Source: a virus
Lineage: Duplodnaviria; Heunggongvirae; Uroviricota; Caudoviricetes
Virus record (IMG/VR): IMGVR_UViG_2671180656_000012
Location: 1 to 13,516 of that record
DNA: 13,516 nt
Reading direction: 5' to 3' (one strand)
Positions 2,263-8,231 of the stretch are shown in pieces; position 1 is the first letter of the stretch; each line of letters starts with the position of its first letter. A program made the translations under genes and the position numbers. The notes below the pieces were generated by a model. The model did no database searches, had not been told where the DNA came from, and was given only the letters and a program-made list of their open reading frames with translations.

Positions 2263-2610
2263 TTATCTATTTAGAATACACATAATACCATCAATAAATC
2301 CAAGTGCACTTTGCAACTCCTTTCTAATAGTTCCATCCGAGCATTTCCGCTTCTTTGCGATTGTACGGAGTGAAATCCCGATAACAAAGTGAGCAATGAT
2401 CAGCTCATATTCTTCTGGTTTATATTTCCGCAACCGGGCCACACATCCATCAATCATAATTCCTTCATCATCATCGCACTGGAGACGTGACTTTTTACCG
2501 TGTGGTAGAAGCCCCTTGAAACCAGCCGCTATCGGCTGCCAGTCGACACCACTATTTTCTGCTGCAGCCCAAGCCCCCCAACGATCTAAAACTTCGTACA
2601 TATCACGCAT
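2263..2610 (-). CDS. Late-gene antiterminator Q-like protein (115 aa)
   Basis: N-terminus MRD..LDRWGAWAA and a Cys-containing CDDD...GC segment resemble, from memory, the short Q-antiterminator family of E. coli lambdoid or cryptic prophages. It is the last gene of the early-right operon after the replication genes, the canonical Q position. Start overlaps the upstream stop by 1 nt. Confidence 0.7.
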   Translation of the reverse strand: MRDMYEVLDRWGAWAAAENSGVDWQPIAAGFKGLLPHGKKSRLQCDDDEGIMIDGCVARLRKYKPEEYELIIAHFVIGISLRTIAKKRKCSDGTIRKELQSALGFIDGIMCILNR

Positions 2611-2867
2611 CAGCGCAGCACCTCATGCACCAGTTTTTCAAACTTTCCAACTTTGGTTTCCAGCTCTGCCACACAATCCACCAGCTCATCCACTGCTTTT
2701 TGTGCGCGGTGTTTCGCCTGCATCAGTTCCCTGAGCGCTGGCACCATATCCCGACGAATAGCATCTTTTGTTACACCTGTTTTTTCCAGTTGTTCCGCCT
2801 GTCGCAACATTTCCTGTGCCTGTTTACGTAATTGTTCAGGGGTAAAAGTCATTGTCTGGTTGTTCAA
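2610..2867 (-). CDS. Hypothetical phage protein (85 aa), likely coiled-coil, nin-region-like position
   Basis: ORF coupled to DnaB-like gene (ATGA overlap at 2864-2867) and to Q. Charged, helical-looking sequence; no family recognised. Confidence 0.55.
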   Translation of the reverse strand: MNNQTMTFTPEQLRKQAQEMLRQAEQLEKTGVTKDAIRRDMVPALRELMQAKHRAQKAVDELVDCVAELETKVGKFEKLVHEVLR

Positions 2868-4264
2868 AAGAAACGCTCCATCTTACTGCTGTCAGTTCGT
2901 TTGTTACTGTATCTGCGCGGTCTGGACGGCTGCATTGATGTGGAAAGAACCTGCGCGCTTTCCTGGTCTACAGGCAGAAAATGTCCGTTATAAAAACGTC
3001 GGTAAATCGTCCCCAGAGAACCATTACGTTGCTTCGTGATATTAATTTCTGCGATGCCCCCGGCCTGCGTATCCGGGTTGTACACTTCATCCCTGTAAAG
3101 CATCAGAATGATGTCAGCATCCGCCTCTATTTCTCCGGAATTTTTCAGGTCTGAGTTCATGGGACGTTTATTTGGTCTGGACTCCACACCGCGGGAGAGC
3201 TGACTCAGCGCAATCAACGGAAAACCACCGGATTTTGCCAGGCCTTTAAGTCCCTTTGAGATTTCACCCACGGCAAGGTCATGACGCCCCGTGGTTCGGG
3301 TTTTTATCAGCCCGAGATAATCAACCACCACCAGTGCCGTTTCCGGATGTTTAATCAAATGGTGTTTCGTTGTTGCGCATATCTCGTCAATGGTCAGGTT
3401 CGCCTGGTCCACCATCCAGATATTGCGTCCGGTCATCAGCTCCACCCCCTTAATGAAACGCGCCCAGTCTTCGTCACCAAAGTTAGAGACAGATTTCAGG
3501 CGCGATACAGGCATTCCTCCGGCAGCAGACACCATGCGTTCACCGATCTGAATGTTCGCCATTTCCATTGTGAACAGAAGAACACCGCGCCCCTGTTCAG
3601 TCACTTTGTCGATGATATCCAGCGCCAGTTCGGTTTTGCCCATTGACGGACGAGCCGCAATAAATACCAGGTCGCCGGGCTCCATGCCGCCTGTTTTTGC
3701 GTCCAGTTCATCAATACCGGTCATCAACGTCCTGGATTTCTCCAGCCCCTGATTCCGGCATTCAACACGGTCAACCACTTCCGGAAGCACATCATCAATA
3801 TGTACCGGCTGAATTGCGCCTTTTTCCATCGACAATGAGGCCATCATGTTTTGAGCATCCTTCAGAGCATCCTCGGCTGCTTCACAGGTATGCGCATCAC
3901 GTAAATTCTGTAATGCTTCGGTCAGTGTTTTTTCTGCATCGCGCAGTGCGGCATTGCGTCGCAGTGCTGCAACATAGTGTTCCAGAGATGACTTCACCCA
4001 GGTTTTACGCCCGGTATCAGTAATCACCGGGGCAAGTTCCGGCATCTCATTGCACAACAGCACAGGATCAATCACGCCGGACACACGGGCCTGTCTGCAG
4101 ATGCCTGTGTATATATCCCGGTACGGTCGTACAGAAAAAACGTCCGCCGGTAGTGTGGCCAGAATATCCATCACTTCCGGATCTGCCCCACGCAAAAAGA
4201 ATGCGCCAATAACAGCACCTTCCAGATCATCGTTACGCCAGACCGGGCTTTTCTGGCTGATCAT
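2864..4264 (-). CDS. Replicative DNA helicase, DnaB family (phage-encoded), 466 aa
   Basis: Walker A FIAARPSMGKTELALD and Walker B-like VVVDYLGLIK are hallmark DnaB C-terminal RecA-fold motifs. Start overlaps the DnaC-like stop (ATGA). Confidence 0.9.
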   Translation of the reverse strand: MISQKSPVWRNDDLEGAVIGAFFLRGADPEVMDILATLPADVFSVRPYRDIYTGICRQARVSGVIDPVLLCNEMPELAPVITDTGRKTWVKSSLEHYVAALRRNAALRDAEKTLTEALQNLRDAHTCEAAEDALKDAQNMMASLSMEKGAIQPVHIDDVLPEVVDRVECRNQGLEKSRTLMTGIDELDAKTGGMEPGDLVFIAARPSMGKTELALDIIDKVTEQGRGVLLFTMEMANIQIGERMVSAAGGMPVSRLKSVSNFGDEDWARFIKGVELMTGRNIWMVDQANLTIDEICATTKHHLIKHPETALVVVDYLGLIKTRTTGRHDLAVGEISKGLKGLAKSGGFPLIALSQLSRGVESRPNKRPMNSDLKNSGEIEADADIILMLYRDEVYNPDTQAGGIAEINITKQRNGSLGTIYRRFYNGHFLPVDQESAQVLSTSMQPSRPRRYSNKRTDSSKMERFF

Positions 4265-5148
4265 GCTGCCACACCTCCGGCATGTGCACGGTAGCTGGGC
4301 CAGTTAAAGGACAACAGGTTACGGCCACCATCCGTAACCCTGTCAGCAATACGTGGACTGATGTATGCCCACAACGCCTTCGGTGAAAGATTGCTGATCA
4401 GGATGGTTGGCAGAATGCTTTCGTACCGGGCATTGATAATTTCCTGAAGAATGGCCATTTCCGCCGCGCTACCAAACTGGACACCCACTTCGTCGATAAT
4501 CAGCAGATCCAGTGATGCATAATGCTCAATCACCTCATCCGCAGTTTTTTCGCTGTCATTCCGCCAGCAGTTTTTCACAGCCCGGGTCAGGCGCATCACG
4601 TCGGTGATCTCAACACTGGCGAGATAGTTGCGGATGACATATTTTGCCATCGCAACCGCCAGGTGATTTTTACCGGTGCCACAACTGCCAGTCAGCACGA
4701 GATTTGTGCCGTTCTCCAGAACATCCGCCCAGTTTTCGGCATAGCGACGACAGGCAGCAAGATTTCTGGCTGCGTCAGGATTAATCTCCTGATAGTTTTC
4801 AAACTCACAGTCACGAAAACGCAGTGCAATTCCGGCGTTATCAGTCAGTTCTTCCGCCTTCAGGGACGACAACTCCATAATCACATCGTTGATTTCAGCA
4901 CTCAGGCAATGAGGGCAGTGTGAAATTTTCTCTCTGTCCTCGCCATTACGATCCCCCCACACCAGAATATGCGTGTGATATTCGCCATGTTTTTCGCAAT
5001 ATCCGCGACCTTCACGCATCCGGCAGGAACGATAAGGCCACGGTTTTTCCCCAGTCTCCGCAAACGCCATCTCAGACCGTAACTCATCCATCCGCGCCTG
5101 TAGTCTTGTTTGTTGTTCACGCAGGTTAAACGTCATCATCGCTGTCAC
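4261..5148 (-). CDS. DnaC-like helicase loader (IstB-like AAA+ ATPase), 295 aa
   Basis: Walker A LTGSCGTGKNHLAVAMA and Walker B LLIIDEVG. Lies between the initiator and the helicase, as in lambdoid replication modules. Confidence 0.85.
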   Translation of the reverse strand: MTAMMTFNLREQQTRLQARMDELRSEMAFAETGEKPWPYRSCRMREGRGYCEKHGEYHTHILVWGDRNGEDREKISHCPHCLSAEINDVIMELSSLKAEELTDNAGIALRFRDCEFENYQEINPDAARNLAACRRYAENWADVLENGTNLVLTGSCGTGKNHLAVAMAKYVIRNYLASVEITDVMRLTRAVKNCWRNDSEKTADEVIEHYASLDLLIIDEVGVQFGSAAEMAILQEIINARYESILPTILISNLSPKALWAYISPRIADRVTDGGRNLLSFNWPSYRAHAGGVAA

Positions 5149-7297: not shown

Positions 7298-7299
7298 AA

Positions 7300-8007
7300 T
7301 TACCCCTGCCAGCCCAGCGCCTGGAACAGCCCCATCTTCGGGTGATACCAGCGAGTACCCCGTGGTTCTGCTTCACTCATCATGCGATGAAAAGCAGACA
7401 TGAAGGGTTCTACTGCAACAATCGCGCGACGAGACAACAATCCATCCGGCGTCATAAATTCATGGGTGTCAGTAGGGATCTGATATGCGTTCACCAGATT
7501 GCGACATTTCGCATCTGACATACCCGTTTTCGCCACCAGCTGACGGTAGCCTGCATAACCATCGCGTATGGTGCCTCTTTTGATTTGCTCGACTGTTTCG
7601 GTAACGTGACTGACTTTCTCTTCCACCAGCTCAAGACGTCTTTGTTGGCGAACGGCTTCAAGTGCCATTGCAGCAACCATTTCGATCTGGCTCATTGGTT
7701 TACGGATTTGTTCTTCCAGTTCGCGCCAGCGATCTACCAGGCGGGCGGTGAATTCAGGGCAAAGCTGTGCGACAACAATAATGCTGTCGCGTTTGCCTCG
7801 TTCACCTTCGAATACATACGCGCTAGAAAATCGGCGAGGCCCAAGTGATTGTTTATTCTCAATTTCCACAGTCTGTGGAAATTGGATGATTCCCTTTTTA
7901 GCCAGTGTTTCAATAGTTCTCTTAACACTATCTGGTCTGCTTCCCACCAGCTCAGCTATCTCAATACTGGTCATGGATGCTTTATCGGTAAAAATTTCTG
8001 TGTTCAT
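7300..8007 (-). CDS. Phage DNA-binding regulatory protein (HTH-like N-terminus; antirepressor/Rha/ORF6N-like), 235 aa
   Basis: N-terminal MTSIEIAELVGSRPDSVKRTIETLAKKGII looks like an HTH or winged-helix segment. Start overlaps the cro-like stop (ATGA). Family assignment is tentative. Confidence 0.6.
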   Translation of the reverse strand: MNTEIFTDKASMTSIEIAELVGSRPDSVKRTIETLAKKGIIQFPQTVEIENKQSLGPRRFSSAYVFEGERGKRDSIIVVAQLCPEFTARLVDRWRELEEQIRKPMSQIEMVAAMALEAVRQQRRLELVEEKVSHVTETVEQIKRGTIRDGYAGYRQLVAKTGMSDAKCRNLVNAYQIPTDTHEFMTPDGLLSRRAIVAVEPFMSAFHRMMSEAEPRGTRWYHPKMGLFQALGWQG

Positions 8008-8231
8008 TGTTGGTCTCCTGTGGGCTTGTCATCTTCTGTGTTCGCAAGACCTGGGTGTGTATATGGAATGTTCGGATCCAGATGACAAAGAATGGCAACA
8101 TCCTCCGGTACACCTCGCGTTTTCCACTTTCCTACGCCTTGACTGCCACGAGTTTTCCCTTTCTTTGGAAATCTTCGACCAATAGCAGCATTGGTTTTGA
8201 ATTGAATTTTTAATATTTCATAAAGGGTCAT
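8004..8231 (-). CDS. Cro-like small basic early regulator (75 aa), first gene of the early-right operon
   Basis: Transcribed divergently from the cI-like repressor, with AAGG 7 nt before the ATG at 8231. Small and basic. Assignment rests on position, not on a recognised HTH. Confidence 0.45.
   Translation of the reverse strand: MTLYEILKIQFKTNAAIGRRFPKKGKTRGSQGVGKWKTRGVPEDVAILCHLDPNIPYTHPGLANTEDDKPTGDQQ

Follow-up and report, generated by a model that had tools for sequence, protein, structure and literature searches.

The closest described relatives of the locus considered here are the immunity-RNA modules of the satellite P4, of phages P1 and P7, and of Gifsy-1. The locus is a 340-codon open reading frame (ORF) on the minus strand of a 13,516-nucleotide (nt) stretch of viral DNA, hereafter the window, which comprises positions 1 to 13,516 of IMG/VR virus record IMGVR_UViG_2671180656_000012. 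The ORF belongs to a tightly packed operon and is probably the counterpart of the P4 gene pair eta/kil, wrapped around an immunity-RNA module of the P4/P1 type.

In P4, a constitutive promoter lies inside eta; in the account of Forti et al. (1999) given in PMC10111431, its transcript is quickly terminated through interactions of the CI and seqA RNAs and is processed to CI, and Kil is translated only upon read-through. By the same account, full-length Eta is translated only from an upstream promoter, coupled to an upstream alpA homologue, and its translation prevents termination. The Rfam C4 and isrK models detect relatives of CI and seqA, respectively (PMC10111431). When applied to P4, the isrK model matches directly after the annotated -10 box and the C4 model matches the CI RNA (74.9 bits); the long P4 frame, as recomputed here, opens at ATG 1417, 1420 or 1423 (199, 198 or 197 amino acids, aa), overlaps the stop of orf88, and spans the -10 box and both RNA matches. 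This frame and the 65-aa ORF within it are the nested genes eta and kil.

The C4 RNA of P1 is described in PMC8201110, citing Citron and Schuster (1990), as the founding antisense repressor of an antirepressor. In Gifsy-1, the IsrK promoter drives a downstream antirepressor-like gene through a leaky IsrK terminator, and the read-through RNA remains untranslated until IsrK acts in trans; a processed species of about 80 nt also exists, and orf45, at the start of the structured region, is conserved in nucleotide sequence and variable in amino-acid sequence (Hershko-Shalev et al., 2016; PMC4825925).

The internal promoter and the IsrK and C4 RNAs

A sequence-only reading of the window had held that its chain of overlapping genes leaves no internal promoters or terminators. 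This does not hold for the 340-codon ORF, which contains a conserved promoter, an IsrK-type small RNA (sRNA) ending in a hairpin and a run of six U, and a C4/CI antisense RNA. The module consists of the following features, for which Shine-Dalgarno (SD) pairing energies are in kcal/mol:

6275..7297, minus strand: long 340-codon eta-like frame, in phase with the Rha domain and extending over the DUF4222 gene, the internal promoter, IsrK and C4; SD -6.6
7101..7280, minus strand: DUF4222 gene, 59 aa, in another frame and wholly within the long ORF; Pfam PF13973, E=9e-13
7076..7104, minus strand: predicted internal promoter TTGATT-17-TACACT, counterpart of Gifsy-1 PisrK and P4 PLE
6993..7069, minus strand: IsrK-type sRNA or seqA-type leader; Rfam RF01394, 56.9 bits (gathering threshold 50), full length
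6881..6968, minus strand: C4/CI-type antisense RNA; Rfam RF01695, 78.8 bits (gathering threshold 45), full length
6835..6875, minus strand: downstream C4 target, with segments b2 TCGCAG (6875-6870) and a2 GTCAACGGAG (6845-6836)
6275..6826, minus strand: nested Rha-family antirepressor-like gene, 183 aa, counterpart of P4 kil; Pfam Phage_pRha, E=1e-30; SD -9.5

Both RNA matches were obtained with the Rfam gathering thresholds applied and lie on the strand of the 340-aa ORF. The roles given to the parts of the module are taken from P4, P1 and Gifsy-1; sequence and comparison cover the promoter, the RNAs, their complementarity and the open frame. The comparison draws on 80 viral contigs that encode close kin of the Rha domain.

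The -35 and -10 hexamers of the internal promoter are each identical in 43 of 44 sequences, and the six bases between the -10 hexamer and the RNA start are variable. Upstream homology stops at about 7105, a mosaic boundary just before the -35 hexamer. On the precedent of its homologues (PMC4825925; PMC10111431), the promoter is presumed to be active. The IsrK-type RNA ends in an intrinsic terminator, composed of the hairpin GACGCGCCAGCGTC (7012-6999) and the U6 run (6998-6993); in the relatives the terminator stem varies among groups through compensating changes, and the hairpin and U-run are always kept. A generic promoter and terminator scan over the operon gave a chance-level result, and the IsrK terminator is the only terminator-like site of that scan with independent support.

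The C4 RNA folds at -47.8 kcal/mol (z=-4.3) and exposes two pairing segments, a' in a loop (CTCCGTTGAC, 6926-6917) and the single-stranded b' (CTGCGA, 6909-6904). Segment a' is complementary both to a2 and to a target mimic in IsrK, a1 (GTCAACGG, 7028-7021); b' is complementary to b2 and to the mimic b1 (TCGCAG, 7043-7038), which forms the loop of the second IsrK hairpin. The a2 segment covers the GGAGG SD (6839-6835) of the nested start ATG 6826, and this ATG and its SD are conserved in 45 of 45 sequences. Among 34 distinct sequences there are eight a' and six b' sequence variants in 14 combinations; a1, a' and a2 co-vary, as do b1, b' and b2, with several a1 copies pairing with a' through G.U. 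Contiguous a'-a2 pairs average 10.9 nt for cognate combinations versus 5.9 nt for non-cognate ones. This is strong comparative evidence for the predicted RNA-RNA control of translation from 6826. Specificity classes co-vary between P1 and P7 as they do here. The tandem isrK and C4 pair also occurs in e14-like, P4-like and other loci, as well as in P4 itself.

The RNAs of the module are unmarked in every database record examined for this DNA. Judged by its sequence, the module is an unannotated member of the known P4/P1/Gifsy-1 family of immunity RNAs.

Comparison with P4, P1/P7 and Gifsy-1, and a proposed mechanism

The locus resembles P4 in having an internal promoter followed by tandem isrK-model and C4-model RNAs, and a long frame that opens at the upstream gene's stop and spans the promoter and both RNAs. 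In each, the ribosome-binding site of the nested gene is the downstream antisense target, and the start contexts are nearly identical, both containing GGAGGCTGCCATC before ATGGCTAC: the P4 65-aa ORF has ATTCACAGGAGGCTGCCATC and then ATGGCTAC, its counterpart in the window AGTCAACGGAGGCTGCCATC and then ATGGCTAC. The b-type pairing segments are of the same kind (GTGAGAA in P4, a class also found in the relatives). The window thus shares with P4 a C4-family RNA, a seqA-type leader with its terminator, paired antisense segments, and a long ORF in phase with a nested gene. The locus differs from P4 in that the nested gene encodes a Rha-family DNA-binding/antirepressor domain of 183 aa rather than the 65-aa Kil, the module is part of a lambdoid early-right operon, ahead of O/DnaC/DnaB/Q, rather than of a satellite's left operon, DUF4222 is embedded in another frame of the N-terminal part, and the junction with the upstream gene consists of a stop, two nt and ATG, not ATGA.

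The first seven codons after the nested ATG (6806-6826, minus strand) read MATIPTL in the window and MATTLTP in P4 kil. Codons of this type are conserved before unrelated proteins, namely Rha, an Icd-like protein, an e14-like protein and Kil (in the window and in the loci L003, L004 and L086); they are therefore part of the RNA/translation-initiation module and not of the protein.

As in the immI region (C4-icd-ant) of P1 and P7, an RF01695 RNA carries two segments whose target sites overlap the ribosome-binding site of the gene that comes first downstream, with copies of these sites upstream, and a C4-family RNA would control an antirepressor. The antirepressor in the window, unlike theirs, is of the Rha type, and the module is embedded in a lambdoid operon. 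No separate Icd-like ORF lies between C4 and the antirepressor gene, where P1 and P7 have icd; the Rha start at 6826 directly follows a2. The P4-like locus L004, on the other hand, does carry an Icd-like gene.

The likeness to isrK-orf45-anrP of Gifsy-1 lies in a promoter-bearing IsrK with a terminator (leaky in Gifsy-1), a structured, translated region beginning at a conserved AUG, and then an antirepressor-like gene. This AUG (6964-6962) lies within C4, is present in 45 of 45 relatives and corresponds to the orf45 start; it sits 106 nt from 7069, and in Gifsy-1 the distance from the IsrK 5' end is about 107 nt. The processed RNA of about 80 nt in Gifsy-1, STnc1160, corresponds to C4, and in both cases the eventual output is a Q-type antiterminator, which in the window is encoded downstream in the same operon. 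The two loci differ in that orf45 ends in an AUGA overlap on anrP, whereas the corresponding frame in the window has no stop between 6964 and 6826 and runs into Rha; it also extends upstream to the stop of the previous gene.

Taken together, these parallels suggest the following mechanism. In a lysogen, the internal promoter would yield short IsrK-terminated transcripts and processed C4 RNA. C4 would mask the ribosome-binding site of the nested Rha-type antirepressor gene and block its translation, and the block would favour termination ahead of the replication genes and Q. IsrK, with its own copies of the target, may titrate C4 or remodel the leader and so turn translation on. Once the early promoter becomes active, ribosomes arriving by coupling from the gene upstream would translate the long frame over IsrK and C4; with IsrK and C4 translated, the terminator and the antisense pairing would be disabled, and transcription would reach O, the helicase genes and Q.

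The long frame, its coding content and its conservation

Coding conservation begins at ATG 6826. From there on, third-position entropy is 0.52 versus 0.19 and 0.18 at the other two positions, and variable sites number 118 at third positions versus 47 and 47; in the stretch 7069-6827, variation among the relatives is equal at all three codon positions. Further upstream, between 7280 and 7104, the window and the related locus L014 differ at 42 positions, 29 of which are third positions of the DUF4222 frame (second positions of the long frame), so that amino-acid selection there acts on DUF4222 and not on the long frame. With no codon-position signal before 6826 and selection on the DUF4222 frame, it follows that there is no amino-acid conservation in the long frame upstream of 6826. 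The 340-aa Rha ORF that the sequence-only reading regarded as supported by its junctions is thus borne out as a conserved and apparently selected open frame abutting the upstream stop, and not as a conventional 340-aa protein.

The product of the DUF4222 gene matches phrog_1343 over its full length (E=6e-32). The gene overlaps about the first 65 codons of the long ORF, and its TGA stop falls in the -35 hexamer of the internal promoter. It was missed in the sequence-only reading, and the two deposited annotations of the same DNA conflict over it: DFAST gives the 340-aa ORF as a single protein labelled 'antirepressor Ant' and has no DUF4222 gene, and PGAP annotates DUF4222 and a 302-aa Rha gene instead. 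A plain 'Ant/Rha' label hides the regulatory module. When synonymous codons of DUF4222 are resampled, the long frame stays open in only 3.9% of trials (P=0.039).

In 50 of 50 distinct relatives, the 315 nt or more that precede the Rha ATG hold no stop in the long frame. The same stretch has no stop sites in the long frame versus 40 distinct ones in the other two frames, and the net indels of the region are multiples of three; the loci are not independent of one another, and both statistics overstate the significance accordingly. In 29 loci the first ATG of the long frame forms an ATGA overlap with the stop of a long ORF upstream, and in 12 it comes two nt after that stop, in diverse contexts. 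In e14-like and P4-like loci the frame is likewise open, in phase with different downstream genes.

Several relatives carry cargo insertions of 0.8-1.7 kb, sited between the long-frame ATG and the internal promoter. Across the cargo the frame is open for 792-1707 nt, and the other frames hold 12-35 stops. The cargo-bearing loci include the following:

L047: open frame of 1707 nt, with 25 and 35 stops in the other frames; cargo is a toxin-antitoxin-like pair of HTH (helix-turn-helix) and Gp49 genes and a SWIM gene, on the opposite strand
L026 and L056: open frame of 1344-1389 nt, with 18-24 stops in the other frames
L035, L038 and L050: open frame of 1014-1101 nt, with 12-26 stops in the other frames; cargo is a ProQ/FinO-family gene in another frame

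The cargo was identified by Pfam as HTH_3, Gp49 (HigB-like) and SWIM zinc-finger in L047 (1081-2185, minus strand) and as a ProQ/FinO RNA chaperone in L035 (1816-2208, plus strand), where it adjoins an RNA-based switch. Two of the L047 cargo genes are in codon register with the long frame, such that TTA, CTA or TCA codons in them would read as stops on the other strand; they contain zero TTA, CTA and TCA codons.

A simpler account is that the long ORF is an annotation artefact, that the real elements are DUF4222, the two RNAs and the 183-aa Rha protein, and that GC-rich, conserved RNA sequence happens to be stop-free. It was the first reading made of the N-terminal half of the long ORF, as a longest-ORF artefact, and was dropped as the main one after the data on the open frame in relatives and the comparison with P4. 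It accommodates the absence of amino-acid conservation upstream of 6826, a second frame (7125-6712) that is also open in the window, the separate orf45 of Gifsy-1, which is out of phase with anrP, and relatives in which the frame starts upstream without SD or coupling. Against it stand the contrast of 0 and 40 stop sites, the indels in threes, a frame held open across unrelated and partly AT-rich cargo of up to 1.7 kb, the codon choice of DUF4222, and long-frame starts that abut upstream stops in many contexts; in addition, P4 eta is reported, in the account given in PMC10111431, to be translated and needed for read-through. On this balance, the artefact explanation is unlikely, although it survives better than the other alternatives.

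Besides the non-independence of the loci, several observations weigh against an eta-like frame. The commonest type of relative (L008-like loci, about 30 of the 80) is without DUF4222, and its long frame begins about 300 nt upstream of the Rha ATG, at a start that lacks an SD and lies 108 nt from the upstream gene; coupling to an upstream stop is therefore not universal. PGAP places the Rha start at 7183 (302 aa) and not at 7297, and the 180-nt overlap of the long ORF with DUF4222 in two frames is unusual. The internal promoter matches the consensus at only 8 of 12 positions and was missed by the scan. Finally, a codon-permutation test on the L047 cargo gave P=0.20, a test of little power, as permuting cannot create the absent TTA, CTA and TCA codons.

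An eta/kil counterpart remains the preferred reading of the 340-codon ORF. A more specific proposal, offered tentatively and with slightly less than even confidence, is that staying open is the only selected property of its first 157 codons, which would be read across the promoter, the IsrK terminator and C4, and that inserted genes keep the frame stop-free. The stop-free cargo in question comprises DUF4222 and the ProQ/FinO gene, in other frames, and the toxin-antitoxin-like pair with the SWIM gene, on the opposite strand. If this is correct, early transcription would override the prophage's own RNA immunity and give access to the replication genes, Q and ultimately Shiga-toxin expression; the module would then serve cargo genes as an insertion site and leave a measurable footprint on their codon usage. 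The comparative data extend to lambdoid phages the idea, drawn from P4 eta, that translation overrides RNA immunity. An RNA-controlled antirepressor and a leaky internal terminator upstream of the replication genes and Q could influence spontaneous induction in Shiga-toxin (Stx) phages, and the same module could influence cross-talk among the many prophages of Shiga-toxin-producing E. coli.

It is also conceivable that the 'Ash' part of the ORF is a real folded domain fused to Rha, the same DNA coding for a functional peptide and the RNAs. Pfam Phage_ASH (PF10554) matches residues 73-168 of the long ORF far over its threshold (63 versus 26 bits), PHROG Rha families have 100-143 extra N-terminal profile positions, and conservation of the frame extends to P4 and P1-like phages. 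The match corresponds to nt 7081-6794, which is exactly the span of IsrK, C4 and the ribosome-binding site, and a translated search leads from Phage_ASH back to the P4 sequence of 1984 and its 'put. ash gene' (X02534 2490-2903; L086 1603-2016). A folded domain is made quite improbable by the equal variation at the three codon positions, by changes that track the RNA pairing classes, by the precedent of Gifsy-1 orf45, with its conserved nucleotides and variable amino acids (Hershko-Shalev et al., 2016), and by the implausible peptides that the cargo-spanning parts would give. Many 'Ash' annotations, including the PGAP label 'ash family protein', probably mark IsrK/C4 RNA modules.

Two unusual arrangements of the module occur among the relatives. 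Tandem double isrK-C4 modules are found in some phages, as in L020 (2255-2443 and 3103-3291) and, downstream of Rha, in L014, L017, L044 and L073; in such tandem modules the second long frame starts through ATGA on the stop of the first Rha gene. In L011 (1763-3049) the IsrK leader is missing and the C4 model is the sole RNA match; a 235-aa HTH/Rha-like gene is fused in frame to C4 and Rha, forming a 429-aa ORF.

Gene junctions and the remainder of the window

Several Stx1a-converting phages of Shiga-toxin-producing E. coli, LC567819 among them, match the stretch 6200-8340 with 100% identity, and a 701-nt piece of the window recurs unchanged in a prophage of E. coli O145:H28 strain 16003. The region is the early-right operon, on the minus strand, of a lambdoid Stx1a prophage. 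By Pfam and PHROG matches, the order of genes is cro-position gene, HTH/Rha-like gene, long ORF, 77-aa gene, O-like initiator, DnaC-like loader, DnaB helicase, 85-aa gene and Q; as in lambda, the cro-position gene, the replication genes and Q form a single operon divergent from the repressor gene. Outside the module, the features are as follows (SD energies as above):

8341-8997, plus strand: LexA/CI-like repressor gene with HTH_3 and Peptidase_S24 domains, facing the minus-strand operon
8267..8295, minus strand: candidate early-right promoter TTGATA-17-TAACAT, with a 9/12 consensus match in the scan, placed by its position between the repressor gene and the cro-position gene
8004..8231, minus strand: first operon gene, at the cro position, 75 aa; phrog_4749, function unknown; its stop overlaps the next start as ATGA
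7300..8007, minus strand: HTH/Rha-like gene of an 'anti-repressor' family, 235 aa; phrog_63, E=7e-45; SD -7.4
6045..6278, minus strand: 77-aa gene; phrog_1153, function unknown; ATGA overlap with the Rha stop; SD -11.4
5150..6058, minus strand: O-like/DnaD-like replication initiator; phrog_270, E=3e-65; start ATG 6058
4261..5139, minus strand: DnaC/IstB-like helicase loader; Pfam IstB_IS21, phrog_50; start ATG 5139
2864..4264, minus strand: DnaB-type replicative helicase; Pfam DnaB_C, E=1e-71; SD -10.8; ATGA overlap with the loader gene
2610..2867, minus strand: 85-aa gene, function unknown; phrog_2565; TTG start in a TTGA overlap
2263..2610, minus strand: Q-family antiterminator, last in the chain; Pfam Phage_antitermQ, E=1e-45, residues 1-113 on profile positions 1-113

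The 235-aa protein also has weak Pfam Phage_pRha and HTH matches, under the family cut-offs. Where lambda has nutR/tR1, after cro, the ATGA overlap at 8004-8007 leaves zero intergenic space.

The sequence-only reading had described every junction from the cro-position gene to Q as an ATGA overlap, a 1-20 nt overlap or a 1-2 nt gap. All eight of its junction coordinates reproduce as boundaries of minus-strand maximal ORFs, and six junctions stay as it gave them. Three are ATGA overlaps, at 8004-8007 (ACAATGAACA), 6275-6278 (CCCATGATTC) and 4261-4264 (AGCATGATCA); 2864-2867 is a TTGA overlap (CTTTTGAACA), and 2610 is a TGATG overlap of 1 nt (GCTGATGCG). At 7302-7295 (TAATTATG), the arrangement TAA-TT-ATG leaves a 2-nt gap before ATG 7297, a junction backed by the relatives. 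For the TTG at 2867, SD pairing energy is -6.2 kcal/mol versus +0.4 for ATG 2852, and both deposited annotations take TTG 2867.

The remaining two junctions (6045-6064 and 5148-5150) rest on unlikely GTG starts, which were given as starts because each is only the first possible codon of its maximal ORF. ATG 6058 has an SD of -11.5 kcal/mol, and GTG 6064, at -0.9, has none; with its SD, ATG 6058 is the likely start of the initiator gene, and the overlap with the 77-aa gene is therefore 14 nt rather than 20. Similarly, GTG 5148 is part of a GAGGTG SD that serves ATG 5139 (+0.7 for the GTG versus -6.9 for the ATG); the loader gene would thus start at ATG 5139, after a 10-nt gap instead of one of 1 nt. 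ATG 6058 and ATG 5139 are the starts used by both deposited annotations.

By the PGAP calls, overlaps of the -4 or -1 type occur at five of the eight junctions; the plus-strand operon of the window has none among its same-strand junctions, about 11 in number. This is the classic coupling geometry of stop/start-overlap operons (Huber et al., 2019, PMC6728339; PMC10666635), and no junction type is more common among prokaryotes than overlaps of the ATGA/TGATG type (PMC6728339). In 77 of 78 related loci the Rha stop retains its ATGA, with three different downstream partner genes. Strict translational coupling, which the sequence-only reading took the chain to imply, does not follow: most of the overlapped starts in the window have a strong SD of their own, a difference from operons of that kind, and an overlap permits coupling and does not show it. 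The overlap chain itself is ordinary, and termination-reinitiation is permitted, not enforced.

Least probable of all, and very hard to sustain, is a simple polycistron with every gene strictly coupled, no internal signals and a conventional 340-aa Rha protein, for although the geometry of the junctions is genuine, the long ORF begins right at the upstream stop and has a usable SD, DFAST gives one protein and generic scans stay at chance level, the ORF contains two Rfam-significant RNA genes (one with a hairpin and U6), a conserved internal promoter and RNA-RNA co-variation that includes G.U pairs, shows no codon-position signature before 6826 and a selected DUF4222 frame in 7280-7104, and most overlapped starts have strong SDs of their own.

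Beyond the stop of Q, from a boundary at about 2260, the window carries a plus-strand cassette (125-2232) of three genes (350, 130 and 221 aa) converging on Q, with a G+C content of 0.30-0.37 versus about 0.50 in the operon. The cassette has no Pfam match, and its PADLOC matches are at noise level only; it looks like a set of acquired accessory genes, occupying the place at which Stx phages generally run on into the late region. According to PGAP, the window also holds another DUF4222 gene at its edge (13408-13516, plus strand) and a frameshifted DUF551 pseudogene in the left operon (12680-12807, plus strand). Between the Q stop and the cassette, a strong 20-pair interrupted hairpin is found on both strands (2205-2262; -22 kcal/mol, z=-7.1 and -6.4), which could be a two-way terminator.

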